A DNA stretch of 64,000 nucleotides, from assembly GCA_965208655.1 (NCBI GenBank), contig CBDBPJ010000003.1:449324-513323 (forward strand). The letters are read 5' to 3'. The notes below the pieces were generated by a model. The model did not search any database, had not been told where the DNA came from, and saw only the letters and a program-made list of their open reading frames with translations. Origin of the DNA: Gammaproteobacteria bacterium (GTDB lineage: Bacteria; Pseudomonadota; Gammaproteobacteria; Eutrophobiales; Eutrophobiaceae). A program made the translations under genes and the position numbers. This document shows, in pieces, positions 34,283-58,100 of the stretch; position 1 is the first letter of the stretch, and the number at the start of each line of letters is the position of its first letter.

Positions 34283-34438
34283 ATTGGAATAATTCAGCAG
34301 AATAATTTGTATAAATTCTTCCATGCGTAGAAGGTGCGATATTGCGATTTCATGTAATATGGCTTCAAATGAGTCATCATCGTAAAGAGCACAAATTCAG
34401 GGAAAAATTGGACTTATTGTTGTTTAAATACAGTTGAG

Positions 34439-35647: not shown

Positions 35648-35652
35648 TTACA

Positions 35653-37881: not shown

Positions 37882-37886
37882 AATCT

Positions 37887-39113: not shown

Positions 39114-39121
39114 AATCCGAC

Positions 39122-39767: not shown

Positions 39768-39974
39768 TTAGCATTGAAATATTCGGCCTGTCCTATCTAC
39801 CAGGGTTTCGTTATTCCATAGGACATCCAGCGCCAGTTTCAGACCTTCCTGTGAGGCCTTGGCTCCTCTGGCTTTGTCCTCATAGATTTTATCGCATTGC
39901 ACCTGGCGGGGTGCTTCATACTGCAAGCGTAAATCCTGATCCTGGGTGGATACCCAGGCATAACCGACTTGCAT
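39768..39974 (-). pseudogene. Serine recombinase N-terminal fragment
   Basis: MQVGYAWVSTQDQDLRLQYEA...IYEDKARGAKASQEGLKLALD matches the catalytic N-terminus (Y.RVST.DQ) of resolvases/invertases. It is truncated after about 60 residues, directly abutting the end of system A. Confidence 0.6.
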
Positions 39975-40242: not shown

Positions 40243-40290
40243 CTGGACAGTTTTGGGCGCCAACTGCTGGATAGTTTTGGATGCCAATTG
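40243..40290 (+). repeat. Two tandem 24-bp repeats (CTGGACAGTTTTGGGCGCCAACTG / CTGGATAGTTTTGGATGCCAATTG)
   Basis: Read directly, 20/24 identical. They lie about 270 bp upstream of the recombinase fragment start. Confidence 0.5.
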
Positions 40291-40617
40291 ACAAAGCTCT
40301 TCTTTACCGATTACCATGTAGATCGTTGGTTGTCACAGGAAACAGCTCAAGATTGAGACATGGTCACTGGTCAGGGCCGGGACAATGTGGTTCGGGTCGT
40401 TCCGAGCAGTCCGTGTGGTTCAGTCATATGCTCTCTAAGAGATGGCGAAGGGCTGCTTTCTCCTGGCACAAGCCCGATTCGCTATGAGCACAGGGCTTGC
40501 CCTAACTCAGCGGTTGGGGAAATCAGCTCTTTCTCGACCAGGCCGTTCATCTCGTACCAATTGAACGAGTTGTTCTGTAAATCGAATAGACAAACAGGAC
40601 TCTGAAGGATAATTGCG

Positions 40618-41484
40618 ATGCGCGCTACCGTCTACAACCTCAAGCATCACGCCTCGGCACCGTTGGCACAGTGGCTGATCCACGCGGCGAAGCGCCGGTC
40701 GTCGGTCACTTACGGCGAGGCAAAGCGGCGACTGGAAACAGAGTTGGAGTTCGATTCCATCTTCCCAACCAGGATGGGTATCCCCGCCGGTGCGCTGATG
40801 TATCGGATCCTCGAAATCCAACCCGACTGTCCCTTGCTCAACATCCTGCTGGTACGGCAAGATGACTGCATGCCGGGCGATGGCGCTGGCCCATTCATGG
40901 CCAACTATCTTGAGCAGCCCCAGCTCGCCAAGCCCGGATACCGCAACAAGCACCGGCGGCGATGGGGCTCCGCATGTGGCGAAATCGCGACCGACGTCTA
41001 TGCCTTCAAGGACTGGGAACAGATCTACCGCAAGGCGTTCGGCGAGCGTCTTCCGGCTGCCACCAGTCCCCGGGGCACTGAACACGACGGCATCAGCTAC
41101 ACGAGAAAAGGCGAAGGTCCCAACCACAAGGCGCTCCGCCTATGGATTAGGGACAATCCGGGCCGAGTTCGACGAGGCTACGCGGACTTTGATACCGACA
41201 CCGAAGTCGTTCTGGACTCTGCGGACAAGGTCGACGTCGTCTACTACGGCTCCATGTCGACCGTCGTCATCGAAGTCAAGTCAATCGATTCGAACGATGC
41301 CGACCTCAGGCGCGGAGTCTTCCAGTGCATCAAGTACCGCGCAGTCATGGAGGCCATGGATATGGGATCAAAAATGCAGGTTGTCCCCGTGCTGGTCACC
41401 CAGAAGCCGATTCCTGGCGACCTTGCTTATCTCGTCCGGCGCCACGGCATCTGGCATTTCAAAGCGCCCCGCACGCTTGAGTAA
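40618..41484 (+). CDS. Hypothetical protein with PD-(D/E)XK-like C-terminal core
   Basis: 288 aa, high GC. The C-terminal DKVDVVYYG...VVIEVKS...QCIKY fits a D...E.K restriction-endonuclease-like fold, preceded by a GEGPNHKALRLWI segment. Confidence 0.4.
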   Translation: MRATVYNLKHHASAPLAQWLIHAAKRRSSVTYGEAKRRLETELEFDSIFPTRMGIPAGALMYRILEIQPDCPLLNILLVRQDDCMPGDGAGPFMANYLEQPQLAKPGYRNKHRRRWGSACGEIATDVYAFKDWEQIYRKAFGERLPAATSPRGTEHDGISYTRKGEGPNHKALRLWIRDNPGRVRRGYADFDTDTEVVLDSADKVDVVYYGSMSTVVIEVKSIDSNDADLRRGVFQCIKYRAVMEAMDMGSKMQVVPVLVTQKPIPGDLAYLVRRHGIWHFKAPRTLE

Positions 41485-41570
41485 TGCGCGGTGACCCGCT
41501 CCAGTTCCTTGAGGATTCGTGCCTGGGAGGCGCGTTATATTGCCCATTCCGACGGTCGTCTCCTCCCCGG

Positions 41571-42195
41571 TGTGCAAAAACAATAAAGTGTCATACTTAC
41601 AAAAAAGTATCATACTTTGTACGCTAGACTTGGGTTCTTAACACTCCGTGTTCGGAGTGGCCGTTGAAGGTTTTTTAAGGTGTTCTTGTGATGCTGACGA
41701 GTATCGCGGTTATCCGAGAGCGATACTGAGCACGGTAACGAATATAGCAATCTGGAGGGCAGTGTTGTAGTTGATTTTGGTTTCAACTTTAATTAGACGT
41801 TGTTCGGTATTTGTCACACGTTCTTCAATGTTTTTGATACTTTCTGGTTGTTCAAGACTGCTTACCGCTTGTTTGGCTTTTTCTTCGGATACGTTTGGTA
41901 TCTCGCGTAGTACTTCGTAAAGGTCTATTGCGCTTATTATGATTACCTTGTGATTAATAGCATGGGATTGGATATTTTTTGTAAATCTGGGTCCAGTTTT
42001 TGTTTATTTGCTATGTTATGCAGGGAATCTTGGGGTTTGATAAGTATGATAGCTTGTATGTATTCGTTAGGGGTTCAGTGTAAAAAAAATAGAAAGTATG
42101 ATACTTTTAATTTTCTCCTAAAAACCCCCTCAGTAAAATCAATAACATACAATAGTGAAAGTATGACGCTTTATTGTTTTCTACACGACTTTATT
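41571..42195. mobile_element. Non-autonomous Tn7-like mini-element 1 (R-like end at 41571, L-like end at 42195), no clear TSD
   Basis: The termini are TGTGCAAAAACAATAAAGTGTCATACTTAC + AAAAAAGTATCATACTTT (packed repeats) and, inverted, TGTAGAAAACAATAAAGCGTCATACTTTCAC plus two spaced AAGTATCATACT-type repeats (42091-42108, 42041-42056). There is no transposase inside. Confidence 0.55.
41710..41937 (-). pseudogene. Diverged copy of the mini-element small ORF lacking a canonical start (ATA instead of ATG)
   Basis: The translation (I)SAIDLYEVLREIPNVSEEKAKQAV...ALQIAIFVTVLSIALG* parallels MSTIDLYQVLRQIPNVTEEQAKQAA... of 56010-56249. No ATG, GTG or TTG start lies in frame upstream. Confidence 0.35.
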
Positions 42196-43012
42196 CGTGG
42201 TCTATGTGCAGATTTATTCTTTATCGTCTCGTTCGGCCAGGTATCGTGCCAAGCGGAACATGCCGAGGAAACCAAAAAGTATTACAAACAGGGTAATCAG
42301 GGCCGTTGTATTCATGTTAGTTCTCCGGGCTCGCTGCCCATATCAGTATCATGCCGACTGCTACACTGGACACGGTCAGTATTAACTGGTCTGAGTAGAA
42401 CATACCTGTAATAAAGCCAGTGCCGGTTATGATAACGCCTACCTGCCGTCCTGCAGTGTAGAGATGGTCAAAGTTTCGTTACATTTTGTTTCCCTATAGT
42501 ATAGCGCATTTATAACGTGCACGGTGTCAACGCATGTGGGGTGTAGGCGGGACGCCCCTGTCCGCGGGGATAGGGTGCCGGCAGGGGCGTTGGTGTCTTG
42601 GATGAGCCGGATCAACGGCTGCTGGGGACGTCGAGGGGTGAATACGCGGGGGTGAGGGTGTGCGGTGGAACGGCCGGTATCGGGAGTGGTATCTGTTCTT
42701 CGATGTGTCCCGTGAAATCCGCTTTGTCCAGGTTGCCGGTCAGAAAGGCTACTAATGCGCCGGGGACATATTTGAAGTAGTACACCTGCCGAACCCGGCC
42801 GGCCAGGGGCGTATCATTTTTATTACAGGCTGATGAGTCTGCTCACCGGCTGAAACGGCTGGTTCCAGGCCATAGCCAACGCTTAGGGCCGGTTATTTAA
42901 ATCGTTTGGAGGCGATTGACAACTGGCGATTTCGGCCGAAATTATAAGTTGTTCTCGCACCTAAGGTATCAAGTGATATAATTTAGAGCATGAAGATTGC
43001 AGAGTTATTGCC

Positions 43013-43288
43013 ATGAAAACGCTCCCTGCAGAGGTGTCAAAGTACGCCACCAGCCCTGAATTCACGGAAGAAACCATCCCTGGGAATCTGAAGAAGTCCC
43101 ACCTGACTAAACATGAGACATGGGCAAAAATTGTGATTCTGGAAGGAACATTACGATACCGCATTCTTGAGCCGGTGCTGGAAGAGGTCAATCTTTCTCT
43201 CAGCAACTATGGGGTCGTGGAGCCGGAGGTCCCGCATGAGGTCGAAGCGATAGGGAAGGTGCGTTTTTATTTGGAGTTTTATCGCTAG
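43013..43288 (+). CDS. DUF1971 (TehB/YeaR-like) domain protein
   Basis: 91 aa. The pattern TPEFTEETIP..L.K.H.TK..TWAKI.ILEG.L.Y is as recalled for YeaR/TehB-associated DUF1971. Confidence 0.55.
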   Translation: MKTLPAEVSKYATSPEFTEETIPGNLKKSHLTKHETWAKIVILEGTLRYRILEPVLEEVNLSLSNYGVVEPEVPHEVEAIGKVRFYLEFYR

Positions 43289-43864
43289 TGTTTGACGACA
43301 GTTAACTTGGCCGGTTCATTCCAGGCGCACGCGCTACCCAGCATTCAATGTAGCCGGAAAATCGCCCGCCACCGCCAGGATGTCTTCGAATGCCGGCACC
43401 TCGCCAATGCCGGCCATGATCAACCGGTAGAGGCCGTAGTAGTGCCGTGCCATGCCGTGCTGGTGTATTTTATTGGCTTTTGGACGAGAGGTTTCCCGTC
43501 AGGGATTCGAGCCTGAATTACAACTCGTTGATATAACTGGAATTTATAAAATCTGAAATATCCTTACCAACGAAAAAACCAACAGAGCATTAAGGGTATT
43601 CCAGTATTTGAGCCGATATTATAGGCGAATTATTCTACGGGCGTCATTAAGCCCTCTAAAACGACCAAAGGAAATTTCAGTCACAAGGATTTATCTAACC
43701 CTAAATCTTGACGAGGTTTTGGGAGCACAATATTCAATTCACTAGTCCTGTCAACTTGCCATGGAAACAATGAATCAAGACATCTCAATGCGTTCCTTAG
43801 TGCTTAATTCCTGTCAATGCAGTAACCAATGAATAAATCCAATGCACAATAATACACACATGTG

Positions 43865-43894
43865 TTGATAATTGCGCAGTTGAGTGACTATAAT
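43865..43894 (+). promoter_or_regulatory. Sigma70-like promoter TTGATA-18 nt-TATAAT upstream of the RHH gene
   Basis: Read directly: TTGATA at 43865-43870 and TATAAT at 43889-43894, about 24 nt before the ATG at 43918. Confidence 0.45.
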
Positions 43895-43917
43895 ACCAGA
43901 CATGGGGTCCAACGAAA

Positions 43918-44112
43918 ATGGCTGAACTGGTTCGCGTGCAGGTGCTGATGCCGAAGCCACAGGCAGTTCGTTTTGATACCTATTGCCGTGATAAAGGATA
44001 CAAGAAGTCAACGCTGATCGCACGTCTCGTCCGAGAGTATCTTGACAGGGAAACTTTCACTCCACAGTCGGAACTGTTCAGTCGAGAGCAACAGGAGTTC
44101 CAAGACGTGTGA
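43918..44112 (+). CDS. Ribbon-helix-helix (CopG/Arc-like) protein, candidate controller of system B
   Basis: 64 aa. VRVQVLMPKPQAVRFDTYCRDKGYKKSTLIARLVREYL fits the beta-strand/helix/helix RHH pattern. Its stop overlaps the GTG start of dcm (GTGA). Confidence 0.6.
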   Translation: MAELVRVQVLMPKPQAVRFDTYCRDKGYKKSTLIARLVREYLDRETFTPQSELFSREQQEFQDV

Positions 44113-45680
44113 CGGATCGAATCATTCACAATAAAATTTCGAGACTTCGAATTGGTGCGCAGCCGCGTGTGCTCTCTCTTTTTTCCGGATGCGGTGGACT
44201 TTCTCTCGGCTTCAGTGCAGCGGGGTTTGAGATTACAGCTGCAATTGAGAACAACCCAAAAGCGGCAGCCTCCTACGGTAAAAATTTTCATGCGGATGTA
44301 AAACGGCATTCAGTGCACCGCGATATCACATCGACAACTCCCGGCCTGCTTGTACGGGCATTGAAACTCGGCAGGATGGCGGAAGCCTTCGACATCATCA
44401 TTGGTGGTCCGCCATGTCAACCTTTCGCTCGGGTAGGTAGATCGAAACTACGGGAAATTGAGGCGGACCCTGAAGCATTTCGTAACGACCCCCGTGCCAA
44501 GCTATATACAGCATACCTCAGATACGTGAAGTCCTGTCGCCCCCTTGCAATTCTGATAGAAAATGTCCCGGATATCATGAATTTCGGTGGTCATAATGTG
44601 CCCGAGGAAATATGCGAAGTTTTGGAAGACCTTGGCTATGTCTGCGCCTATTCACTGTTGAACGCCGCATTTTACGGCGTGCCCCAGACACGCGAACGCA
44701 TGTTTTTGATCGCATATCACCGCAAACTTGCCTCAAGTGTCAGTTTCCCTGAACCGACACATTACATTGATCTGCCTTCCGGCTATGAAAGTTCACGACG
44801 GGTCGCGCTGAAAATGTTGACAAACGGTAATATGTCCACATCAGCGCACAGGTATGTGGATCCACCGAAGTCCGCAAATGGCCTGCAACCTGCCGTAACG
44901 GCTGAAAAGGCGATCGCCGATTTGCCCGAAATAGACGCGCAGAAACTGTTGACCACTGGCGTCCTGAAACGCGGTGTACGTCGTTTTAACACACTGATAC
45001 CATACGATGATAGCCGCTCAGTTTCGGAATATGCCCAGTTGATGAAGAGTTGGTCCGGGTTTGAGGGCGGGGAAGGTGTCTATGATCACGTAATTCGATA
45101 CCTTCCACGCGATTACCCACTTTTTGCACGTATGAAAGAAGGTGACCAGTACCCGGAAGCACACAAATTAGCGCTGAAGATGTTTGATGAAAAGTTGGCG
45201 GAACATACCGGAAAGGGGGTCTGCATCAAACCGGATTCGGTGAAATATGAAGAGCTGAAAGGCTCAGTCGTGCCGCCTTACGATGCAGGTAAATTTCCGA
45301 ACAAATGGCGGAAGATTGCACGAGATCAGCCGGTGCGCACAGTAATGGCGCATTTGAGTAAGGACGGATACAGCCATATCCATTACGACGATTCCCAAGC
45401 TCGGACAATTTCAGTACGGGAAGCAGCGCGGCTTCAGTCATTCCCGGACGGATTCGTGTTCACTGGTGCAATGAACCAAGCGTTCCAGCAGATAGGGAAC
45501 GCAGTTCCTCCCTTAATGGCCAAAGCGATCGCTTTGGAAATCATGAAGAAGATCCGAACGTCGGCAAATACCCATTCGAGGCAACTTCCGTATCGAATCA
45601 AAGATGCATCTGAGACTGAAACTGGATTACCGAGCGCTGCATACAGCCAACCCGCGATGGGTGAGACGGTTGAAACTTGA
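44109..45680 (+). CDS. dcm: DNA (cytosine-5)-methyltransferase (system B)
   Basis: 523 aa. Motif I FSGCGGLSLGF, motif IV GGPPCQPFA, motif VI ENVP, motif VIII QTRERMFLIA, motif X GNAVPPLMA, with a long variable target-recognition region. Confidence 0.9.
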   Translation: MTDRIIHNKISRLRIGAQPRVLSLFSGCGGLSLGFSAAGFEITAAIENNPKAAASYGKNFHADVKRHSVHRDITSTTPGLLVRALKLGRMAEAFDIIIGGPPCQPFARVGRSKLREIEADPEAFRNDPRAKLYTAYLRYVKSCRPLAILIENVPDIMNFGGHNVPEEICEVLEDLGYVCAYSLLNAAFYGVPQTRERMFLIAYHRKLASSVSFPEPTHYIDLPSGYESSRRVALKMLTNGNMSTSAHRYVDPPKSANGLQPAVTAEKAIADLPEIDAQKLLTTGVLKRGVRRFNTLIPYDDSRSVSEYAQLMKSWSGFEGGEGVYDHVIRYLPRDYPLFARMKEGDQYPEAHKLALKMFDEKLAEHTGKGVCIKPDSVKYEELKGSVVPPYDAGKFPNKWRKIARDQPVRTVMAHLSKDGYSHIHYDDSQARTISVREAARLQSFPDGFVFTGAMNQAFQQIGNAVPPLMAKAIALEIMKKIRTSANTHSRQLPYRIKDASETETGLPSAAYSQPAMGETVET

Positions 45681-45699
45681 TCCTACAGATGCGTTAACT

Positions 45700-46191
45700 G
45701 TGGAAGACAGAGGCACAGATGTATTAACTCCAGAACAGCGTCACTTGGTGATGAGTCGGATAAGGGGCAAGGACACCAAACCTGAACTGCTAATCAGGTA
45801 TGGGCTTCACCAGCGAGGCCTGCGATACAGGCTACATGGGGCGGATATACCTGGCAAACCAGATCTGGTGTTTCCGAAGTATCGAACTGTGGTTTTTGTG
45901 CACGGATGCTTCTGGCACGGTCACGGATGCTCACTGTTCAGGTGGCCAAAAACCCGTGCAGCGTTTTGGAATTCCAAGATCAGCCGCAACATTGAACGAG
46001 ACCGGGAGGTGCGGGTTGCCTTGAAGACGGCCGAGTGGCGCTCGATTGTGGTTTGGGAATGCGCCTTGAAAGGTAAGTTCAGGTGGGCACTGTCGGATGT
46101 GCTGAGTGACGTAGAAGCCTTTATCAGGCACGGCTGTGAGTATGTTGACGAAATTGCCGAATACGAGAATATAGCCAGAAGCGCATTGTGA
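45700..46191 (+). CDS. vsr: Very short patch repair endonuclease (start uncertain; the listed ORF begins at 45604 inside dcm)
   Basis: TPEQRHLVMSRIRGKDTKPE, PGKPDLVFPKYRTVVFVHGCFWHGH, WRSIVVWECA. The in-frame GTG at 45700 lies 19 nt after the dcm stop. Confidence 0.85.
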   Translation: MEDRGTDVLTPEQRHLVMSRIRGKDTKPELLIRYGLHQRGLRYRLHGADIPGKPDLVFPKYRTVVFVHGCFWHGHGCSLFRWPKTRAAFWNSKISRNIERDREVRVALKTAEWRSIVVWECALKGKFRWALSDVLSDVEAFIRHGCEYVDEIAEYENIARSAL

Positions 46192-46319
46192 ATGTACCAT
46201 GATGGCATGATTTTCGAGGATTGCACAAATTCAATCAGGTTTTGCAATATCTCTGCATGCATTGACATGCCCGGAAGGCGCCAAGTGCCGAGTAAGTGTT
46301 GACTGCACGGGACGCAGCA

Positions 46320-47834
46320 ATGTCGAAAGCATCGAGACCGAACTTCGAGATTGCTGCCCCACCGGCATCATCAATGATCGAATCCTTGCGTGGAGTTGGG
46401 TATTCCCCCGAGACCGCAATTGCCGACTTGATTGACAACAGTATTTCCGCCCATGCACGAAACGTCTGGATCACGTTCTGGTGGGAGGGTCGCAGATCGC
46501 ACATCGCCATTCTGGATGATGGCGACGGTATGACGGAAAGCGAACTTTCCAAAGCAATGCGCCCCGGCAACATAAGTCCACTTGAAAATCGTCCAGCGGA
46601 CGATCTTGGCCGGTTTGGTCTCGGGCTAAAGACGGCATCATTCTCTCAGTGTCGGCAACTTACGGTCGCTTCGCTTCAAAATGGACAGTTCTCAACGAGG
46701 CGCTGGGATCTCGATCATGTGGCGCGGGTCGAGGAATGGCAGCTATTGAAGAGCCCTGTCTCTGGGTCCGAAGAAATTCTGAAGCCGCTCCTAAAGCTTG
46801 GCCAAGGCACAATGATTCTTTGGGAGGACCTGGATCGGGTCGTCGGAAATATTCAGACTTCAGATAGCAGTTCCCATGATCATTTCTTGAGTCTGATCGA
46901 TCGAATTGAATCGCACTTAGCAATGGTATTTCACAGATTTCTTGAGGGTGGTTCGGCGAGTTTGTCAATATTCATAAATGGAAGCGACGAAGGTCATCGC
47001 GTGAAAGCATGGGACCCCTTCATGAGAGATCACGGTGCGACTATTGCGACTCCAGAGGAACGGATAACGACTCATCGAGGAATTGTGGAGATCCAGGGAT
47101 TCGTCCTGCCACATAAGGACAACATGGCGCAGCGTCAATTCGAGACTGGTGCCGGTTTGGAGGGGTGGACGGCACAGCAAGGTTTCTACGTCTACAGGAA
47201 CAGGCGAATGCTTGTCTCGGGTGGTTGGCTGGGATTTGGGAAAAGTAAGGCGTGGACCAGGGAAGAGCCTTACAAGCTTGCCAGACTGAGGCTCGACGTA
47301 CCGAATACCGCGGATGCCGACTGGAATATCGACATAAAGAAATCGGTGGCACGTGCTCCCAGCTACATCGCGTTTCGCTTGCGCGATCTTGCCGAGCATG
47401 TACGGGATCAGGCACGGCAGGTGTTCGCTCACCGCGGAAGCTACGGGCCTCGGGTACCCACACCCGACCTGCAGAGGGCCTGGAGGGTCGTAAAGCGGAA
47501 GGAATCAACAGCCTACCTGGTGGACCGAAGCCATCCTCTCGTGAAGCAGGTGCTTGATGAGGCCGGTCCGCTCAAGGAAGCGGTGGTCGCAATGCTTCGA
47601 CTGTTGGAGGAGACCATGCCTGTGCAGCGAGTGTGGATCGATACTGTGGAAAATGGAGAGATCCACAAGGGAGCATTTGAGGGTGCCCCGTCCGCTGACG
47701 TTAAGATCGTACTAAACGTACTGTATCGTCATCTGGTCGAGACGATTGGCCTCGATAGGAGCATGGCCCGATCCCAGCTGTTGAAAACTGAGCCGTTCCA
47801 CAATCATCCGGAACTGGTTGAGTCACTCGAATAA
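46320..47834 (+). CDS. GHKL (HATPase_c_3/MORC-like) ATPase of the Z1/AIPR system
   Basis: About 504 aa from the ATG at 46320. Bergerat motifs AIADLIDNSISA, LDDGDGM and GRFGLGLKTAS. Confidence 0.8.
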   Translation: MSKASRPNFEIAAPPASSMIESLRGVGYSPETAIADLIDNSISAHARNVWITFWWEGRRSHIAILDDGDGMTESELSKAMRPGNISPLENRPADDLGRFGLGLKTASFSQCRQLTVASLQNGQFSTRRWDLDHVARVEEWQLLKSPVSGSEEILKPLLKLGQGTMILWEDLDRVVGNIQTSDSSSHDHFLSLIDRIESHLAMVFHRFLEGGSASLSIFINGSDEGHRVKAWDPFMRDHGATIATPEERITTHRGIVEIQGFVLPHKDNMAQRQFETGAGLEGWTAQQGFYVYRNRRMLVSGGWLGFGKSKAWTREEPYKLARLRLDVPNTADADWNIDIKKSVARAPSYIAFRLRDLAEHVRDQARQVFAHRGSYGPRVPTPDLQRAWRVVKRKESTAYLVDRSHPLVKQVLDEAGPLKEAVVAMLRLLEETMPVQRVWIDTVENGEIHKGAFEGAPSADVKIVLNVLYRHLVETIGLDRSMARSQLLKTEPFHNHPELVESLE

Positions 47835-47852
47835 GTCGATCAAAATCAAAGA

Positions 47853-50717
47853 ATGAGGAACAAAGTGACAAACGACTACGAAACTGTACTGGTCATGGTC
47901 CAGGCAATGATCAGGCAAAAGATGGACGATGGACCATTGTCTCGGGAGGCGATTGCCGAATCCGTGGAAAAGGTTCTTTCAATTGATCCCAGCTGGCGCG
48001 AGTCGATTGATATCGATAGTCTCGTACGTGATTTGGAAACCCGCTTCGATGTTTGGATTGGTCGAGAAACCACACTGGAGGGGAATGACGATCACGTAAG
48101 GTGGTTGGATTCAGAGCGGGCACAAGGATGGCGATACTGGCCACGGTATCGACAGTACCTCGAGAGTTCGTGGGCACCCAGCACCGTCGATTCTCTGGAT
48201 ACGGTAACCGATCGCGTTCTGTCACTCCTGGAAGATCCAAATCGGGAGGGCACATGGGACCGACGAGGGTTGGTCGTGGGGCACGTCCAGTCCGGAAAGA
48301 CATCCAACTATATAGGTTTGATTTGCAAGGCGGCCGATGCAGGTTACAAATTAATCGTCGTACTATCCGGGCTCCACAAGAATCTGAGAAGCCAGACTCA
48401 GATGCGGCTGGACGAGGGATTTCTCGGATACGAGACATTACCTCCGCAGGAAGCACACACTCAGGAATTGCGAACCATAGGAGCGGGCTTGATCGATCCT
48501 GATCCGACAATCAGGCCGGACTACGTCACGAACCGCGCCGATAATGGAGATTTCAGCCGCACCGTGGCAAACAGTCTTGGAATCAACCCGGGGGGACGCC
48601 CACTCTTGTTCGTAATCAAGAAGAACGTCAGTGTTCTCCGCAATCTACAGTCCTGGGTTGATCGGGTCGCCAACTCGAGAGAGGCAGAAACGGACCGACC
48701 TATCGTCAGAAATATTCCTCTGCTTGTCATTGACGATGAAGCTGACCTTGCCTCTGTTGACACGCATGAGCAGGATTTTGACGAGGAAGGGCGTCCTGAC
48801 CCCGAGCATGATCCTACAGCAATCAACAGACATATCCGGCGGTTTCTATTCTGTTTCGAAAAGAGCGCATATGTCGGATACACAGCAACACCGTTTGCCA
48901 ACATCTTTATCCACGAACGGGGCACAACCGCGACGGAATGGGAAGACCTGTTTCCGCGTAGCTTTATAATGACTTTGCCGGCACCGTCAAACTATATTGG
49001 ACCTGTTCGGATTTTTGGTCTGGAGCCAGACGATGATGTGTCGAATGCGGTGGAGCCACTACCGCTGTATCGTCCGGTGAGAGATCATGCTGAGTCGCTC
49101 GACCTTCGAGAGCGCAAAGGCTGGATGCCGCCTCGACACATCAACGGTCATGTTCCTAGATATGAAGGTCTAGATGATCTACCACCATCCCTTCGGCAGG
49201 CCATCTATGCGTTCATATTGTCCTGCACTGCACGTCGCGTCCGGGGACATACAGGTAAACACAACTCGATGCTTGTCCATGTGACTAGGTTTACGGTGGT
49301 ACAGCATGCTGTTTTCTCTCAGGTGGAAAGGTTGCTGCAACAGCTGCGCCGAAGAATAGTAAGAGGTGAAGGCGCTTCGAGAGCACCAACATTTACCGAG
49401 CTCAGACGAATGTGGGAAGAGGATTTCTTACCCACCACCGCCACAGTTAAGCAACAAATCGATGATTCAGAAATTGTCAATGTTTCATGGGAAGAGGTGG
49501 AAAAACACTTGATGCGCGTCATTTCCGACATTTCTGTGCGGGAAATAAACGGTACAGCGGGCGACGTACTCGATTACGACACTCACCACGCGACCGGGCT
49601 GAACGTAATCGCAATTGGTGGGGACAAGCTCGCACGCGGTTTGACACTGGAAGGATTAACTGTCAGCTACTTCCTTCGTGCGTCGCGAATGTACGATACG
49701 TTGATGCAAATGGGCCGCTGGTTTGGCTACAGGCCCGGTTATTTGGACCTTTGTCGTCTGTATACTACGCCTGATCTTGCGGAATGGTTTCAGCACATAA
49801 CGGAGGCAAGTGAAGAACTACGCCAGGAATTTGATCACATGGTTGCCGTCGGCGGGACGCCGAAACAGTACGGTCTGAGAGTCATGAGCCATCCAGCTAT
49901 GATGGTTACATCAAGGGTAAAGATGCGCCATGGCACTGCGCTTCAGCTTTCTTTTGCTCACTCCATTTCCGAGACAGTCGTATTTCACAAAGATGCTCAC
50001 AATATTTCATTGAATTTTCGTGCAACTGAAGAATTTATCCGGAAGTTGGGTTCTCCTAGTGAAACTGCTCCGACAAGATCGAGACCAAACGAGGGGACAC
50101 ATCGCTGGTCCGGTACGTACCTTTGGTCCGACGTCAGCGCAATAAAAGTCATGGCATTTCTTGATAATTATACGACGCACAACAGCGCCGTACGAGTGCA
50201 CAGCAGAATCCTTCGAGAGTTCATTCAGGCACAGGTAGAGGTGGACGAATTAGTTAGTTGGACGGTTGCGCTGATGTCGGGAGGCAGAGGTGGACAATGC
50301 ATTATCGGAGGACACAACATTGTGTTGAGCGAACGTTCGCCCAGTACCCGCGGTGGCCATCTACCAGAGACGGAACGTTACGTTATCGGGCGTTTGCTTG
50401 CCCCTCGTGACGAAGCGATTGATCTCGACCTCGTAAACTACGAGGCGGCATTGCGCATGACTATAGATGCTTGGCGAGAAGATCCAGGTCTTTCACGCAA
50501 TCAACAAGAACCTACAACGCCGTCGGGACCGAGTATCCGGGAAAAACGGAGCGCGCAAAACGGCTTGCTTCTACTCTACCCGCTGTCCCCAACCGGCGAT
50601 CATGTAGAAGGCGGCGTTCCAGTAATTGGGTTCGGCATCAGCTTTCCTAACAGCCGGAGTGCAAGGACAGTGACCTACACGGTAAACAACGTCTATTCGC
50701 AACAGGAATTCGGATAG
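47853..50717 (+). CDS. Z1-domain protein (P-loop, helicase-like NTPase)
   Basis: 954 aa. Walker A GHVQSGKTSNYIGL, Walker B LLVIDDEADLASV, and the later GGDKLARGLTLEGL and MGRWFGYR motifs that I associate with the Z1 family. Confidence 0.85.
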   Translation: MRNKVTNDYETVLVMVQAMIRQKMDDGPLSREAIAESVEKVLSIDPSWRESIDIDSLVRDLETRFDVWIGRETTLEGNDDHVRWLDSERAQGWRYWPRYRQYLESSWAPSTVDSLDTVTDRVLSLLEDPNREGTWDRRGLVVGHVQSGKTSNYIGLICKAADAGYKLIVVLSGLHKNLRSQTQMRLDEGFLGYETLPPQEAHTQELRTIGAGLIDPDPTIRPDYVTNRADNGDFSRTVANSLGINPGGRPLLFVIKKNVSVLRNLQSWVDRVANSREAETDRPIVRNIPLLVIDDEADLASVDTHEQDFDEEGRPDPEHDPTAINRHIRRFLFCFEKSAYVGYTATPFANIFIHERGTTATEWEDLFPRSFIMTLPAPSNYIGPVRIFGLEPDDDVSNAVEPLPLYRPVRDHAESLDLRERKGWMPPRHINGHVPRYEGLDDLPPSLRQAIYAFILSCTARRVRGHTGKHNSMLVHVTRFTVVQHAVFSQVERLLQQLRRRIVRGEGASRAPTFTELRRMWEEDFLPTTATVKQQIDDSEIVNVSWEEVEKHLMRVISDISVREINGTAGDVLDYDTHHATGLNVIAIGGDKLARGLTLEGLTVSYFLRASRMYDTLMQMGRWFGYRPGYLDLCRLYTTPDLAEWFQHITEASEELRQEFDHMVAVGGTPKQYGLRVMSHPAMMVTSRVKMRHGTALQLSFAHSISETVVFHKDAHNISLNFRATEEFIRKLGSPSETAPTRSRPNEGTHRWSGTYLWSDVSAIKVMAFLDNYTTHNSAVRVHSRILREFIQAQVEVDELVSWTVALMSGGRGGQCIIGGHNIVLSERSPSTRGGHLPETERYVIGRLLAPRDEAIDLDLVNYEAALRMTIDAWREDPGLSRNQQEPTTPSGPSIREKRSAQNGLLLLYPLSPTGDHVEGGVPVIGFGISFPNSRSARTVTYTVNNVYSQQEFG

Positions 50718-50722
50718 ATACG

Positions 50723-51751
50723 GTGGTTTCTGTCGGGGAAATCTGGGACGAACTGGCGACGACAAGCGATCGAGTAGCGAGGAAGGATGGATGGCATTTG
50801 CGGCGGATTTATCCGGACGCGGACAGTGACATTTTCGTTGCATTACGCCAACCTGGTGCGATACCTGCCCTGCTGGTAGAAGTTAACGCCACCGCCATAG
50901 AAGTGGTTGGGGAGTTTCCATCTGCCCGGGGATTCGAGCTTTATCCCGAGTCTGTGACACCAGGTCCTCGGGGCCGTACCAGGCTGTGCTTGGTACTCGC
51001 TGATACCCGTTATCGTGATGTCTTTGAGGTGCTCGTGAATGATGTTAGTGAAAGGACCGTACTCACACCCGGAGAAGGCGATGGCGTGAAGACATTCATC
51101 GCCAGATTACACATCTGGCAGAATTTCATGAAAAAGCATGGAGTCGAAGGGCTGACAAGAGAAGCGCAGATCGGTCTGTTTGGAGAACTGTTTTTTCTAG
51201 CGACCCATCTGGTCGATCGGCTGCCAGCTCATGATTCGGTGAAAGCATGGAAAGGGCCATGTGGAGGAAACCAGGATTTCAACCTAGAGGGGCGGTGTAT
51301 AGAAGTCAAGAGCACGACAGTTATTCCTCCTGTCACGATGAATATCTCCAACATGGCGCAACTGGACGAGACTCTTGTCGAATTGTTGCTACTCTGCCAT
51401 TTGTCGCTGGCTCTCGGTGACCGTGACGGGGAAAGCCTTCCGGAACTGGTGAAGCGACTCAGGGAAACTATACGTATTCAGGACGACTCGGCACTTGACG
51501 GTTTCAACGCAAAGCTGATTGAGGCAGGCTACCTTGATTCACATTCTGAACTGTATTCGGATACACGATACAGATACCGAAAAACATTGTTTTTCAAAGT
51601 AGCCGACAGTTTTCCACGGATAACGGCGAGCGATCTTCATGATGGAATCTCGGATTGCAGTTACGCAATTCTTCTGAATGCGTGTGTGCCCTACCAAGTA
51701 GGAGACACGGAGGCTATTGGAGCATTGTTGAATGAAAAAGAGAGGAAATGA
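50723..51751 (+). CDS. PD-(D/E)XK motif protein
   Basis: 342 aa. GGNQDFNLEGRCIEVKST provides the D-x(n)-E-x-K core. It starts 5 nt after Z1 and has a 4-nt overlap with the AIPR gene. Confidence 0.75.
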   Translation: MVSVGEIWDELATTSDRVARKDGWHLRRIYPDADSDIFVALRQPGAIPALLVEVNATAIEVVGEFPSARGFELYPESVTPGPRGRTRLCLVLADTRYRDVFEVLVNDVSERTVLTPGEGDGVKTFIARLHIWQNFMKKHGVEGLTREAQIGLFGELFFLATHLVDRLPAHDSVKAWKGPCGGNQDFNLEGRCIEVKSTTVIPPVTMNISNMAQLDETLVELLLLCHLSLALGDRDGESLPELVKRLRETIRIQDDSALDGFNAKLIEAGYLDSHSELYSDTRYRYRKTLFFKVADSFPRITASDLHDGISDCSYAILLNACVPYQVGDTEAIGALLNEKERK

Positions 51752-53817
51752 AATTGGAGCGTGAGATTCGAATATTTACGGAAAGACTGAGTTCCGAGAT
51801 TCGTGACCGAGCTATGGGTGGTGGCCCATTTGGAAAAAAGAATTTCAGGGAAAATGCGTTCACGGAAATCGTCATCGAGTATCTATCCGAGATTGGGATG
51901 GTTGAGAATGGGGAGGTTTGCTATTGTGAAACACGCGTAGGACGTGGTATCGGAAAGGTGAGTGGTTTCGGTTTCAACGACGACGAGGACACCTTGGAAG
52001 TATTCACGAGTGTCTTTCTTGATTCCAGAACGCCAGCCACACTGCCCAGTGACGATATTCGGAAAGGGGCAGAACGCGCGGCAAGGTTTGTGCAGGCATG
52101 TTTCAGTGGAGTTCATAATAATATGGAGGTCGCACACGATGCGCATGCAATGGCGTCCAGGATACATGAACTCGAAAAACAGCTCGATAGAATACGAATA
52201 TTCATCCTTTCCGATGGCGTCACCCAATTGAAGCAACAGGATGCTATGGAAATCAACGGTATTCCGGTCAAATTCGAGATTTGGGATATCGAACGACTGT
52301 TTAGAGGAATGCAGTCAGGGCTGCCTCGGGACGAGATCGAAATTGATTTCGAAGAGGTGTTCAACGAAGCGTTACCTTGCCTGACACTACCACAACCACC
52401 GAAAGACTACACAGTCCACCTCGCGATTCTGTCAGGTGACATGATTTATAGGTTATACGACGAATACGGCTCCCGACTTCTTGAGCTCAACGTCCGGTCG
52501 TTTCTTCAGGCTCGAGGAAAGGTGAATAGGGGCATCCGCGATACACTACGAGAGGAGCCAGGACGATTCATGGCCTATAACAATGGGATATCCATGACTG
52601 TTGACGAGTTGACGACCATTGTGCTTTCGGATGGACGTCCGGCCATCAAGTCGGTTCGCGGTCTTCAGGTCGTGAACGGCGGACAGACCACGGCATCCAT
52701 ATACCGCGCAAAAAAGCAGGATGGAGCAGATATCTCATCAGTGTTCGTGCCTGCGAAGATTACGACAGTTGTAGGAGAAACAGTAGATCAATTGGTTCCC
52801 AAGATATCTCGGTATGCCAACACGCAGAATGTGATCCAGATGGCTGATTTCTCAGCAAATGACCCCTTCCATGTAGAGATTGAGCGGCTTTCACAAACGA
52901 TTTGGTGTCCTGGTGAGCAGGGTCGATGGTTTTATGAGAGAGCCCGCGGCCAATATCAGGATGCCAAGGCCCGAAAAGGTACGACCCCAGCGAGAACCCG
53001 TAGATTTAATGAACAGACGCCGCCAGCTCGAAAATTCACCAAAACCGACCTTGCGAAGTTCATAACCTGTTGGAACCAGAGTCCACACCTTGTGAGCCGT
53101 GGTGCTCAGAAAAATTTTGACATCTTTATGCAGGAACTACGCGTCGGAAAGGAACAAGAATGGTTGCCAGACGAATCCTATTACAAGCTGCTAATTGCCA
53201 AGGCAATTCTGTTCAAGACGACCACACGAATTATCAGGAAAGAACAGTTTGCAGCCTATCGAGCGAACATTGTTGCATATCTCATAGCCTACATTTCTTT
53301 CCGGACTGGCGGGCAGCTTGACATGGGCCTAATTTGGCGGGAACAGGCTTTGTCTGAGGCGTTTGAGGAATTGATACGGTCGTGGTCGCACAGTATCGAT
53401 GAGGCGATCCGAAGTACCGCGAATGGTCGAAACATTACGGAATGGTGCAAGAAGGAGGATTGCTGGAAATCGATCAGTAAAATGTCTTTTCCTCTGTCCA
53501 ATCCAATCCCGCTGGAATTACAAGAGCACACCGAACCAGGTGAACACCGCGGGCGCCGTGCAACGCAGTTATCTCCCAGTGATTATGAGAATATCACCGA
53601 ATGTAAGAAACTGAATGGTGAAGAATGGTTGAAGATCCATGCCTGGGGTGTTCGTACGGGGCTGCTGGAAAACTGGCAATGCGGCATCGCGCAGACGCTT
53701 GCCGGTTATGCGGCGAATGAATGGGACCGCGAGCCTTCCCACAAACAGGCAAGACAGGGAGTTGCTATCCTGGAGATCACAAAACAGCACGAAGCCGGGA
53801 TCAACAGGACCAGCTAG
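51748..53817 (+). CDS. AIPR (abortive-infection phage resistance-like) family protein
   Basis: 689 aa. The central region RSFLQARGKVNRGIRDTL..PGRFMAYNNGIS...VNGGQTT is characteristic of AIPR proteins as recalled. Confidence 0.8.
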   Translation: MKLEREIRIFTERLSSEIRDRAMGGGPFGKKNFRENAFTEIVIEYLSEIGMVENGEVCYCETRVGRGIGKVSGFGFNDDEDTLEVFTSVFLDSRTPATLPSDDIRKGAERAARFVQACFSGVHNNMEVAHDAHAMASRIHELEKQLDRIRIFILSDGVTQLKQQDAMEINGIPVKFEIWDIERLFRGMQSGLPRDEIEIDFEEVFNEALPCLTLPQPPKDYTVHLAILSGDMIYRLYDEYGSRLLELNVRSFLQARGKVNRGIRDTLREEPGRFMAYNNGISMTVDELTTIVLSDGRPAIKSVRGLQVVNGGQTTASIYRAKKQDGADISSVFVPAKITTVVGETVDQLVPKISRYANTQNVIQMADFSANDPFHVEIERLSQTIWCPGEQGRWFYERARGQYQDAKARKGTTPARTRRFNEQTPPARKFTKTDLAKFITCWNQSPHLVSRGAQKNFDIFMQELRVGKEQEWLPDESYYKLLIAKAILFKTTTRIIRKEQFAAYRANIVAYLIAYISFRTGGQLDMGLIWREQALSEAFEELIRSWSHSIDEAIRSTANGRNITEWCKKEDCWKSISKMSFPLSNPIPLELQEHTEPGEHRGRRATQLSPSDYENITECKKLNGEEWLKIHAWGVRTGLLENWQCGIAQTLAGYAANEWDREPSHKQARQGVAILEITKQHEAGINRTS

Positions 53818-54262
53818 TCGACACTGCTGGGATTTATTATAGTACCTCGACCGCTGGCGACAGGAACTCCACGAATTTGAGCAGTTGCGCGCGATATAGT
53901 AGAAATATTCAAGTAATCGGACCGGTAAGCAACGACCTCCGTAGAGCAGGTGATGGCGAGGGAATTCAGGGCAGACATACTTCTTAATTCTTGAATACGG
54001 CTGTGATGCAAAGGCTGGCAAGAAGCGTTCTGCCTAGTTATCCTGACTACGTGATGCAACGGGGGAACCTCCTTCGGGATGTGTTCTGTTGTAAAGGCAA
54101 ATATTAGTTGAGTATTGTGTCCCCTACATTGCTAAGAATCTGAAGAAAACGTTCTGCGTCCCTGATGTCTACAGGGCTGGTATGAAAGTACGGTAAAGGT
54201 GCTCAAATAAACATCTGCGAGAACAGTGTGCAGTACCTTACATACAGTCGTATGATATAGAC

Positions 54263-55438
54263 ATGCAATTCGTACCTTTTTCATACGCCCACTCCACCGA
54301 CCTTAAGGTCGATGCTGTCTATCAAGGAGGCCGCCTGGGAAATGCTGGAGATGACCCCTTGCCTCACCTTCTTAACGTCAGCAATTCAGGAGGATTCAGA
54401 TATCGGGGTCAAGTGCACAAATTGGAACTGGTGGTTCTGACGTCTTCAGGCAAAGATCCAGACTGGCCGGACCTGCTTGAACGCGAGACCGGTATTTACA
54501 CTTACTTCGGAGACAATAAAAGACCTGGTCGAGGACTGCACGAAACCCCCAGAAAGGGGAACGAGCTTCTCCGGCGGATTTTTGATTTGGCTCATTCAGG
54601 CATTGAAGGACGTCGGCAGGTACCCCCTATATTGTTGTTCGCGAATACAGGGGAATGGAGAGATGTTGTATTTCTTGGACTTGCTGTTCCTGGCACAGCC
54701 GACCTCCGTGCATCAGAAGACCTTGTTGCCATTTGGAGAATTGCCAAAGGAAGTCGATTTCAGAACTATCGCGCCCGTTTCACAGTTCTCGATGTGTCAT
54801 TTATATCACGAGCCTGGATTGCTGATATCATCGCCGGCAATCCTCACTCTTCCAACGCACCTGAGGCGTGGTCAGCCTGGGTTCAAACCGGCCGTCCGCG
54901 CTCGCTGCTCGCCGCCAGATCATTGGAATACAGAACCAAAGGCGAGCAAATTCCAGATAACTCAATTGATCGTTCCATCTTGGAAAGAATTCACGAATAT
55001 TTCGAAAATGATTCTCACGGTTTCGAACGCTGTGCTGCTGAGCTTGCAAAACTGCTCCTCCCTGATATTGCAGAAATCGATTTGACCAGGCCTTCTCGTG
55101 ATGGGGGCCGCGATGCAATTGGTAAACTGCGTATCGGAAGCGGGGCATCCGGGATTTTGGTTGACTTTGCGCTTGAAGCCAAATGCTACGCTCTTTCCAG
55201 CGGCGTAGGTGTAAAAGGCATGTCCCGGTTGATCTCCCGGCTGCGTCACAGGCAGTTTGGCATACTGGTTACAACTAGCTATGTAAATGTTCAGGTTTAT
55301 CGTGAGATCAAAGAGGATCAGCATCCCATTATCGTTATCTCTGGTGCAGATATCGTGGCGCTATTACGAGCTGATGGCTACGCTCATCCAGAATCCGTCA
55401 GAACGTGGCTGAAGCAAAACTTTGTCCTCAATGAGTGA
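54263..55438 (+). CDS. Candidate modification-dependent restriction endonuclease: SRA/YDG-like N-domain + Mrr-cat-type PD-(D/E)XK C-domain
   Basis: 391 aa. VVLTSSGKDPDWPD...GIYTYFGDNKRPG..LHETPRKGNELL parallels the SRA pattern (SGGY.DD.D.G....YTG.GG....Q.L..GN.AL). The C-terminal part, SRDGGRDAIG...LVDFALEAKCY, supplies D...E.K. Confidence 0.5.
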   Translation: MQFVPFSYAHSTDLKVDAVYQGGRLGNAGDDPLPHLLNVSNSGGFRYRGQVHKLELVVLTSSGKDPDWPDLLERETGIYTYFGDNKRPGRGLHETPRKGNELLRRIFDLAHSGIEGRRQVPPILLFANTGEWRDVVFLGLAVPGTADLRASEDLVAIWRIAKGSRFQNYRARFTVLDVSFISRAWIADIIAGNPHSSNAPEAWSAWVQTGRPRSLLAARSLEYRTKGEQIPDNSIDRSILERIHEYFENDSHGFERCAAELAKLLLPDIAEIDLTRPSRDGGRDAIGKLRIGSGASGILVDFALEAKCYALSSGVGVKGMSRLISRLRHRQFGILVTTSYVNVQVYREIKEDQHPIIVISGADIVALLRADGYAHPESVRTWLKQNFVLNE

Positions 55439-55479
55439 ACAAGACTGGTAGCTGCTTTTCACAAAACTTGAACCAGGCA

Positions 55480-55755
55480 TCATCATGAACTTAACAGGAT
55501 CAGAGCGGAAAGATATTTCAAACAGGAGCATCAGGGAATTACCGCATTATTGAACTTGAACGGCAAGGTGGAGCGGTCACACCAAACCGACAGGACCGAA
55601 ATTCTATGCAACGGGTGGTATCACCGATGATAACCTGGAGCTGTTATTGGCGGAATGGCAATACTACCAACTGGGACCGGCCGCACAGCGCGCACATCAT
55701 GGCAAATCGCCGATGGAACGTTACTTTCAACTGGGTGATGAAACCCCTTACTCAG
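55480..55755 (+). pseudogene. DDE (rve-type, IS481/IS3-like) transposase C-terminal remnant, cut by mini-element 2
   Basis: One frame reads ...NGKVERSHQTDRTEFYATGGITDDNLELLLAEWQYYQLGPAAQRAHHGKSPMERYF, the conserved TNGKVER...H.ALGG..P end of rve transposases. Upstream frames are broken. Confidence 0.4.
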
Positions 55756-56361
55756 TGTAAAAACACAATAAAGTATCATACTCACGACATTCTATATTAT
55801 TGATTTTATTGAGTAGCTTTTTTAACAGAGCCGTAAAAGTATCATACTTTCCACTGCAGTTAGCGCCAACCTCCTAACTACGACAGACGAAAGTATCATA
55901 CTCACGCAACCCGAGAACACCTCTTCATGGCATACAAGATAAACAACAGCTATCTTCAGATTTACAAGATAGCACCCTCTCTGATACTATTAATGATAAG
56001 GTAAACAAGATGAGCACAATAGACCTCTACCAAGTACTACGCCAGATACCAAACGTAACCGAAGAACAAGCAAAGCAGGCCGCGGCCGGCGCGCAACAAA
56101 CAGGCCGTTCAGAAGGTATCGAAACGAGACTAGCTAATCTAAAGACCCAAGTGGCTGAGTTGGGCGCAGAGTTGCGGACAACGACGCGTATCATCCTGGG
56201 CCTGCTGCTCGCCGTCCTGGCAATACTGCTGGCACCACTAGTCCAATAACCACCGAAACCAAAGACCCGCACCACTATCTACTCGACTTTACAGAAGGAT
56301 GATACTTTATTGTAAAGTATGATACTTTTTTGTAAGTATGACGCTTTATTGTTTTTACACA
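55756..56361. mobile_element. Non-autonomous Tn7-like mini-element 2 (L-like end at 55756, R-like end at 56361) with 5-bp TSD CTCAG
   Basis: The termini are TGTAAAAACACAATAAAGTATCATACTCAC plus spaced repeats (55835-55850, 55891-55905) and, inverted, TGTGTAAAAACAATAAAGCGTCATACTTAC-AAAAAAGTATCATACTTTAC-AATAAAGTATCATCC (packed). CTCAG occurs at both 55751-55755 and 56362-56366. Confidence 0.65.
56010..56249 (+). CDS. Small coiled-coil protein with C-terminal TM helix carried by mini-element 2
   Basis: 79 aa. Heptad-like central region and hydrophobic tail ILGLLLAVLAILLAPLV. A diverged homologue lies in mini-element 1. Confidence 0.5.
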   Translation: MSTIDLYQVLRQIPNVTEEQAKQAAAGAQQTGRSEGIETRLANLKTQVAELGAELRTTTRIILGLLLAVLAILLAPLVQ

Positions 56362-56742
56362 CTCAGATGAAGCCTATGAACTTTATGAACCTTCTCTTGA
56401 ACGAATTCAAAACCCGAATTACAAGGTAGATTTAGAACTGAGAGAAAATTGAAACGATCTCTGTGAATCACAAATTCAAGATATCCGGCTTGGAACGACA
56501 TCTTTCTATCCCGCCCAAAGCTTCCTTTCTTTAAGCATAGCTATAATGTCTTCCAGAATACTTTTTTTCTGAGCGTCATCCTGCACGTACACCTGAAAGG
56601 CCTGCATCGTCCCTTTCTCCCCCTTGTCGAACAGATTCCCTTCGATGATAAAAGGTGTCTTTGATTCGCTCACGACTGCGCTGCAAGAGGTGTACGTCGT
56701 CATAGCTATTTGGACAGTTGTCCGCCCGATTGAAGAGACGGT

Positions 56743-57741: not shown

Positions 57742-58100
57742 ATACCGTCCTGCCCATCCCCGATTATGCTTTTTTTGAGCAGACGGTTTTCCATCACCAC
57801 TTCGGCCAGAGCTTCTTTCAGGGAAGCTGTCTCGGCTCGCAGGGTCTTGACCTCATCTGAAGTGGCTTCCCGAACGGTGTCACCCGACAGGCGTTTTTTG
57901 CCCGCCTCCAGAAATTCCTTGCTCCAGCGGTAGTACACATTGGTATTGATGCCCTCACGGCGGCAAAGCTCGGCAATACTGTCTTCGCCGCGTAGGCCCT
58001 CGAGGACAATGCGGATTTTCTCTTCGGCAGCGTATTTCTTGCGGGTATGGCGGCGAATATCACGTACCGTCTTTTCAACTTCAGGTTTTTTCTTCATCAT
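57738..58100 (-). CDS. IS3-family transposase OrfA (HTH, leucine-zipper)
   Basis: 120 aa. RKKYAAEEKIRIVLEGLRGEDSIAELCRREGINTNVYYRWSKEF; 4-nt overlap with orfB. Confidence 0.9.
   Translation of the reverse strand: MMKKKPEVEKTVRDIRRHTRKKYAAEEKIRIVLEGLRGEDSIAELCRREGINTNVYYRWSKEFLEAGKKRLSGDTVREATSDEVKTLRAETASLKEALAEVVMENRLLKKSIIGDGQDGI

Follow-up and report, generated by a model that had tools for sequence, protein, structure and literature searches.

Tn7, a textbook transposon, also serves as the chassis on which CRISPR-guided integration tools are built. Its ends have been summarized in a published rule, with the left (L) end holding three binding sites for TnsB and the right (R) end four, the outermost lying about 12 bp from the tip (PMC8649781). 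The TnsE protein steers Tn7 to mobile DNA (10.1101/154229), and target immunity in the Tn7 family should disfavour insertion near arrays of TnsB sites (PMC11014353). Given Tns proteins in trans, laboratory mini-elements that consist of Tn7-family ends alone will transpose, as the methods of two reports describe (PMC11014353, PMC9881144). A literature search for natural derivatives of Tn7 that are non-autonomous, miniature or MITE-like (MITE, miniature inverted-repeat transposable element) brought up nothing beyond engineered mini-Tn7 tools and reviews of a general kind. Here we describe two short elements, E1 and E2, on a gammaproteobacterial contig (CBDBPJ010000003.1, positions 449,324 to 513,323; the whole stretch of 64,000 nt is hereafter called the window). 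We consider it probable, at roughly 85%, that E1 and E2 are independently inserted, non-autonomous mini-elements of the prototypic, glmS-targeting Tn7 clade, and that they are moved in trans.

Both elements stand out by their repeats. The motif CAATAAAGNNTCATACT, allowing up to three mismatches, has nine matches in the window where 1.13 are expected, a count reached by none of 100 shuffles, and AAGTATCATACT, allowing up to one mismatch, has 12 matches against an expected 0.17. Every match to either motif falls within one of four clusters; together with two degenerate L-end sites, the nine CAATAAAGNNTCATACT matches make up the 11 copies, confined to four clusters, that an earlier note on this DNA had reported. 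That note had also placed a terminal TGT at the start of each cluster. The TGT is present at all four ends, with the first site of each cluster about 10 nt inside it, and termini of the form TGT...ACA recur in all of the relatives discussed below. The clusters pair into two elements. E2 (55756..56361, 606 bp, plus strand) is intact-looking and has exactly the limits first proposed for it, whereas E1 (41571..42185, 615 bp, minus strand in the L-to-R direction), an older and decayed copy, ends at 42185 and not at the 42195 given before. The two are homologous over their full length (64% identity in an alignment of about 536 nt) and are inverted relative to each other, their R-like ends (41571 and 56361) facing outward, as had been claimed.

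The site positions also bear out the earlier description of each element as having one end of packed repeats and one of three spaced repeats. In E2, the L-end array (55765..55902, plus strand) comprises sites at 55765-55782, 55831-55848 and 55885-55902, and the R-end array (56296..56352, minus strand) comprises packed sites at 56335-56352, 56316-56333 and 56296-56313. In E1, the R-end array (41580..41616, plus strand) has lost its third site and retains two packed TnsB-type sites of 18 bp (41580-41597 and 41599-41616). Its L-end array (42043..42177, minus strand) holds spaced sites at 42160-42177, 42095-42112 and 42043-42060, the last of them degenerate, and a single base pair is missing between the terminal TGT and the first site, which shortens the offset at this terminus from 10 to 9.

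For comparison with real Tn7, the right end was checked on E. coli chromosomes (100% match) and the left end was fetched from the same copy, in which the glmS stop codon lies 25 nt before the TGT and tnsA follows. The earlier note had likened the repeat core to the TnsB-binding repeat of Tn7; the Tn7 repeat that it gave is correct, and both the repeat core and the offsets of the sites match closely. At the right end, sites are offset by 10, 30, 51 and 71 in Tn7, by 10, 29 and 49 in E2 and by 10 and 29 in E1. At the left end, the corresponding offsets are 10, 74 and 130 in Tn7, 10, 76 and 130 in E2, and 9 and 74 in E1, whose third site is degenerate and lies near 126. Tn7 and the mini-elements agree in all of the first nine bases of the site, ACAATAAAG. 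The layout of E2 consequently fits the rule for Tn7-like ends, in which about three sites are dispersed over some 150 bp at the L end, three to four are contiguous at the R end, and the outermost begins some 10-12 bp from the tip (PMC8649781).

The way in which E2 entered its present site can be read directly. A perfect 5-bp duplication, CTCAG, flanks the element (left copy 55751..55755, right copy 56362..56366), in agreement with what had been noted before. When E2 and one CTCAG are removed, the flanks join into the C-terminal 95 amino acids of a transposase of the insertion sequence (IS) family IS481, with 62% identity across the junction (E=2e-28, tblastn against plasmids). This remnant (55550..56452, plus strand, in pieces 55550-55755 and 56367-56452) is frameshifted, lacks its N-terminus and is split by E2; since it reads across the junction, the earlier placement of E2 inside a decayed transposase gene stands. 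The 95-amino-acid remnant is not recognised by Pfam, and an assignment of the E2 target to IS3-type or other rve transposases of the loci studied was rejected, as it gave no match. The predicted empty site, with a single CTCAG, would read ...CCTTACTCAGATGAAGCC.... E2 is a clean simple insertion and looks mobilisable.

The history of E1 is less tidy. Its target module (40286..41570, plus strand) consists of a conserved hypothetical gene of 288 amino acids (40618-41484) and the 3' flank of that gene, and is 92% identical to locus L250 and 86% identical to locus L251. The homology to both ends exactly at 41570, the base before the TGT of E1, and the R junction is therefore a genuine insertion junction. 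Past this point L250 and L251 share at least 200 bp more (...CCCCGG and then GCTTCAGCC...). That shared stretch is absent from the window, so the DNA beyond the L end of E1 has been replaced. The flanks of E1, CCCGG and CGACT, accordingly show no target duplication, the L-side flank being a replacement. With an ATA in place of the start codon of its small gene, a lost R site and the 1-bp L deletion, E1 is the older copy and probably immobile.

Evidence that such elements have moved as units comes from their relatives. The small protein encoded in E2 has about 53 homologous clusters, and their contexts yielded mini-element relatives at L118, L129-133, L134, L135, L136, L137 and L138, in which the order of L end, promoter, open reading frame (ORF) and R end is kept. 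Perfect 5-bp duplications are present in seven of nine independent insertions, and with that of E2 included they read CTCAG, TTCTG, ACAGG, TTGGC, CCATC, ACCTG and GGCCG. E2 is 93.4% identical to L134 and 91.8% identical to L118, which lie at other loci, with other duplications, in other samples; the identity of E1 to L135 is 71%. Two lineages occupy attTn7 with the R end toward glmS, at a distance from stop codon to TGT of 24 nt (L136) and 25 nt (L129). Moreover, a single sample contains three 771-bp copies (L136, L137 and L138) that differ at only 2-4 positions (99.5-99.7% identity) and stand at three loci with the duplications CCATC, ACCTG and GGCCG, respectively.

These copies bear on the possibility that each element is a full Tn7-like transposon that was emptied on the spot and was never mobile as a mini-element. 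An internal deletion must have happened at some time, decayed Tn7-like elements do exist (L135/L136), and E1 is clearly degenerate. However, the same L end, promoter, ORF and R end occur at at least nine loci with different 5-bp duplications, and the three nearly identical 771-bp copies were found at three sites in one sample. Identical internal junctions are not expected from independent deletions, and the alignment shows a common junction. We regard emptying in place as highly improbable for either element. The same insertion-site data dispose of a second idea, which the earlier note had raised against its own proposal, namely that the repeats are operator arrays bound by an unrelated regulator; this regulator would control the small gene, and the TGT termini and CTCAG would be coincidences. 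The repeats do surround a small, expressed-looking gene, and some of them are partly palindromic (AAGTATCATACTT). Yet seven independent perfect duplications of 5 bp lie exactly at TGT/ACA termini, copies are found at attTn7 at the distance and in the orientation of Tn7, the same array stands at the ends of tnsABCD operons, and the small gene is also found without such repeats. Operator arrays are thereby ruled out for all practical purposes.

The ends can also be tied to a particular clade of transposase. When genomes were scanned for a packed pair of the repeats, more than 117 loci matched, mainly in Gammaproteobacteria and usually with TGT in front. In Hahella (L002) and in L112, the packed array is followed directly by tnsA-tnsB-tnsC-tnsD, and on a metagenome contig (L136) a mini-element adjoins the R end of a tnsA-tnsB-tnsC element that carries the same repeats. 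The TnsB of L136 matches Tn7 TnsB (PDB 7PIK) from end to end (E=2.7e-139), and 27 genome loci encode a TnsB that is 63-88% identical to it; in about 20 of the 27, the packed array lies some 950 bp upstream of tnsB and the element begins 24-29 bp after glmS. The TnsB proteins of these repeat-bearing partners belong to the prototypic Tn7 clade. The earlier note had considered that no TnsB-family transposase might be linked to such ends; the arrays are instead found at tnsABCD operons. An exact 37-mer of the R end has no match in representative genomes, and a subfamily-specific end pattern matched one metagenome-assembled genome (MAG; L052), in which the interior of the element falls outside the stored stretch, and had no match in JGI metagenomes. 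A profile of the small protein likewise found no relatives in JGI metagenome contigs or in viral contigs.

Between the ends of E1 or E2 there is only an ORF of 72-79 amino acids, and the tnsB gene by which an autonomous Tn7-like transposon is recognised is missing. Both elements are non-autonomous, given that no tns genes lie between their ends. The earlier statement that neither codes for a transposase, and that both must depend on functions in trans, is thus upheld by the ORF content and by the tblastn result given below, but it overlooked the conserved small gene that each of them carries.

Several observations weigh against placing E1 and E2 among trans-mobilised members of the Tn7 clade. 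No homologue of TnsA/B/C/D/E was found by tblastn in the 64-kb window, which is part of a contig of about 725 kb. The full-length partner at L135/L136 is itself decayed, with IS3 and IS21 insertions and a TnsC shortened to 378 amino acids, and neither tnsD nor an L end was found in it (the L end was sought in L135). No homologue of the small ORF was found within 10 kb of tnsB in the 27 full-length relatives, none of them being recognisable as the parent from which the mini-element arose by deletion. Neither E1 nor the L129 lineage has a clean target duplication. Finally, E1 and E2 are only 13.6 kb apart, and L136 presents a tandem, despite the target immunity that would be expected.

Under our reading of E1 and E2 as mini-elements moved in trans, a full-length relative in the same cell would supply TnsA and TnsB, which would attach to the end arrays and move the element by a cut-and-paste reaction, while TnsC together with a target selector would direct its insertion. 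TnsD would send the mini-element to a position 24-25 nt downstream of glmS, and another pathway, possibly TnsE-like, would lead to sites other than attTn7, often in IS elements or islands; a protein of the L135/L136 element lies barely over the TnsE_C threshold (27.6 vs 26.7 bits). Each insertion would leave a 5-bp duplication. The identity of the mobilising proteins is inferred, as is any present-day activity in this genome.

Some features of the relatives deserve to be recorded in their own right. At L136 (9676-10522) the mini-element occupies attTn7 as the immediate neighbour of a tnsABC element whose repeats are the same, and the CCATC target has been re-duplicated; a side-by-side insertion of this kind is unexpected under classical Tn7 target immunity. 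At L129 there is no clean 5-bp duplication of the target (9730-9747 and 10527-10545, TAATC vs ATTCT), and both flanks contain motifs with TCTGCG that resemble the glmS-distal att region of L136. The 771-780-bp variants carry about 190 bp between the small ORF and the R end that are missing in E2-type copies. This extra segment (L129 10229-10470; L136 10220-10460) is conserved across both lineages and may hold an antisense ORF.

The passenger gene of E2 (56010..56249, plus strand) is an intact ORF for a protein of 79 amino acids. E1 retains a remnant of 75 codons (41710..41937, minus strand), an open frame of the '...IKVETKINY...G' subfamily in which the ATG has become ATA, so that the two elements carry two different subfamilies of the small protein. 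Upstream of the ORF in E2 (55961..55994, plus strand) lies a promoter-like TTTACA-N16-18-TACTAT/TATTAAT followed by an AAGG ribosome-binding site, an arrangement that is conserved across the family. Pairwise ratios of non-synonymous to synonymous substitution rates (dN/dS) for the ORF range from 0.14 to 0.57, which places it under purifying selection, and together with the conserved promoter and ribosome-binding site these values indicate that the small ORF is a real gene.

Members of the protein family share an invariant N-terminus, MSTIDLYQVLRQIPNVTEEQAKQAA, then a coiled coil that varies in length and finally a hydrophobic C-terminus. AlphaFold models the E2 protein as a short helix and then a long helix over residues 18-78, with a confidence score (pLDDT) of 80. 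The protein of 72-79 amino acids is predicted to be a tail-anchored membrane protein, and its architecture may be likened, by way of analogy only, to small tail-anchored coiled-coil proteins. Profile searches of Pfam, NCBIfam, PHROGs and PDB gave nothing significant for it; the best match within the family, phrog_1193 'hemolysin' at 3e-4, was obtained with one family member.

The same small gene is also found away from Tn7 ends. At L248 (5820-6210) it lies directly after a tRNA gene and keeps the promoter region of the mini-elements, at L249 (6001-6207) it is an ordinary chromosomal gene flanked by a GTP cyclohydrolase-like gene and mazG, and in other places it is carried as a cassette of about 300 bp within mosaic arrays that have a tyrosine recombinase nearby. 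Since the gene occurs without Tn7 ends, it is a passenger and not a transposition factor, and the predicted membrane protein, conserved as it is, travels on at least three kinds of vehicle. The cassette arrays suggest a further alternative, in which another enzyme, such as a tyrosine recombinase, moves the cassette by site-specific recombination, and small-protein homologues of 57% identity (P0024) do occur in such arrays near a 329-amino-acid tyrosine recombinase. These arrays, however, are without Tn7-type repeats, and they share with the mini-elements only some 300 bp around the ORF and not the ends. The 5-bp duplications and TGT/ACA termini are signatures of a transposase, recombination-site cores are absent at the element boundaries, and the window's own integrase (59021-60244) belongs to the P4-type island integrases and lies at a distance of 2.7 kb. 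The chance that a recombinase of this kind moves E1 and E2 appears to us very slight.

On the right of E1, about 114 bp of sequence (42803-42916) are 74-84% identical to a repeat that separates short gene cassettes in arrays from metagenomes. The arrays with this repeat (L122 9655-9768; L119-L127) contain a small-protein homologue and, nearby, a 329-amino-acid tyrosine recombinase. As an integron attC site the 114-bp repeat was rejected, for it forms no convincing hairpin (z -1.3 to -1.6), and Rfam had no matches between 40 and 58 kb of the window.

A further claim concerns what lies between E1 and E2. The defence system enclosed by the two mini-elements, which does not belong to either of them and was labelled system B in the earlier note, is a Mza-type cassette (43857..53817, plus strand) encoding Dcm, Vsr, MzaB (HATPase), MzaC (Z1), MzaD (DUF4420) and MzaE (AIPR). 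PADLOC matches were obtained for MzaB (3e-144), MzaC (1e-299), MzaD (2e-29) and MzaE (4e-133), with Dcm and Vsr also present; because a methyltransferase and all of MzaB-E are there, the cassette qualifies as a Mza system. An AspBHI-like methyl-directed restriction enzyme (54263..55438, plus strand) is encoded between the cassette and E2. At the nucleotide level the cassette is 83% identical to a Bryobacterales MAG and 78% identical to a Terriglobia MAG over exactly 43857-53817. This homology stops 1.7 kb from E1 and 1.9 kb from E2 and terminates precisely at the stop codon of mzaE. Such identity across phyla points to recent transfer of a discrete cassette.

The earlier note had thought it conceivable that two R-like ends bound one mobilisable unit, at present or in the past, made up of the whole 14.8-kb segment from 41571 to 56361 and including the Mza and type IV defence genes. 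Its geometry is right, as both R-like ends point outward. The accompanying statement that two right ends can support transposition accords with the portion of PMC9308760 that cites Arciszewska 1989, where Tn7 with two right ends transposes in vivo and Tn7 with two left ends does not. Moreover, defence cargo is common in Tn7-like elements (PMC8649781), and miniature elements derived from Tn3 are reported to build mosaic non-autonomous transposons (PMC4133298). Nevertheless, several points speak against the segment as a unit. It has no duplication of its own, CCCGG at 41566-41570 standing opposite CTCAG at 56362-56366, a mismatch that had already been conceded. The IS481 remnant is continuous over E2, which has its own duplication, and this R end has not been re-inserted since E2 arrived; the continuity means that the outward R end of E2 acquired its flank by the insertion of E2 itself. 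The Mza homology ends at 43857 and 53817, short of both elements, and clusters of these repeats are missing from all of 80 related Mza loci (1.57 Mb). E1 and E2, for their part, are only 64% identical and come from different sublineages, and the R end of E1 is down to two sites. We hold a composite unit to be highly improbable, and that E1 and E2 enclose the Mza/type IV segment is best seen as chance, the two having inserted separately into one mosaic island. For annotation this serves as a caution that arrays of Tn7-type ends in a defence island do not necessarily delimit what lies between them.

The island itself is a low-GC mosaic extending over about 31-60 kb of the window, in which remnants of IS21, IS3, IS481 and resolvase lie alongside a P4-type integrase. 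Its low-GC part, at about 31-57 kb, has a GC content of 40-53% compared with 55-60% outside. This part is bounded by intact-looking IS21 (istA/istB) and IS3-type elements at 28254-30217 and 56743-58100 and by the island integrase at 59021-60244, 2.7 kb from E2, and no tRNA gene is present anywhere in the 64-kb window. At the left edge of the island, 31153-32283 encodes a protein of 376 amino acids with a Schlafen/AlbA_2 domain that may be defence-related. A second Dcm-linked system at 33884-39766 comprises Vsr, Dcm (DruM-like, 3e-101), a double-HATPase protein of 742 amino acids, and proteins of 416 and 214 amino acids without a family; it is followed by the N-terminal remnant of a serine recombinase at 39768-39974.

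The family to which E1 and E2 would belong carries several implications. Tn7 machinery would be parasitised by minimal hitchhikers in the way that IS elements are parasitised by MITEs. The family offers naturally minimised and evolutionarily validated L and R ends, amounting to about 250 bp in all, and it provides a natural test of target immunity. We also entertain, as a speculation that we would sooner doubt than adopt, that these elements form a maintained single-gene 'satellite' lineage of prototypic Tn7, in which the protein would be selectable for the host or for the element and the arrays at attTn7 or in islands may redirect the landing of full-length Tn7, by way of target immunity or an escape from it. 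If this were so, the clustered copies (at L136, and E1 with E2) would point to a clade of Tn7 whose immunity is weak or bypassed.

It remains to set the mini-elements against the systems that they most resemble. To Tn7 and its glmS-targeting relatives they are alike in their TGT/ACA termini, in a TnsB-site core of 18-22 bp (ACAATAAAG....A.ACT), in the 5-bp duplication and in the offsets of their sites (L 10/74/130; R 10/30/51(/71)). Among relatives of the mini-elements, insertion likewise takes place 24-25 nt downstream of glmS, the R end being the nearer one, and the TnsB of the partner at L136 is homologous over its full length to that of Tn7. They are unlike Tn7 in having no tnsABCDE, in measuring 0.6-0.8 kb rather than 14 kb, in a 3' half of the repeat that reads TCATACT where Tn7 has TTAAACT, and in having three R sites and not four.

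Class 1 integrons are defective derivatives of Tn402 (TniABQ), within the wider Tn7/Tn5053 superfamily, that have kept their ends and are supplied with tni genes in trans; they differ from the present elements in transposase subfamily, ends and cargo, and they do not target attTn7. The laboratory mini-Tn7, mini-Tn6022 and mini-CAST (CRISPR-associated transposon) vectors are, like the elements described here, built of ends plus a passenger gene and move with TnsABC and a selector in trans. Those vectors, however, are engineered, whereas E1 and E2 are natural, belong to at least two sublineages and carry a conserved native passenger gene. With MITEs, mobile insertion cassettes and the Tn3-derived inverted-repeat miniature elements (TIMEs; PMC4133298), the mini-elements have in common that they are short, transposase-less, multicopy and mobilised in trans, and that they keep the termini and target duplication length of the parent. 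Unlike MITEs and TIMEs, their parent would be neither a simple IS nor a Tn3 element, but the heteromeric Tn7, with asymmetric multi-site ends and target selectors. A strict definition of MITEs calls for no coding capacity, and the conserved ORF, under purifying selection and with its own promoter, falls outside it. Carrying a coding gene, the mini-elements stand nearer to mobile insertion cassettes than to MITEs. Tn7-type ends and mobilisation in trans are already known; new to the literature searched is a natural family of single-gene mini-Tn7 elements.

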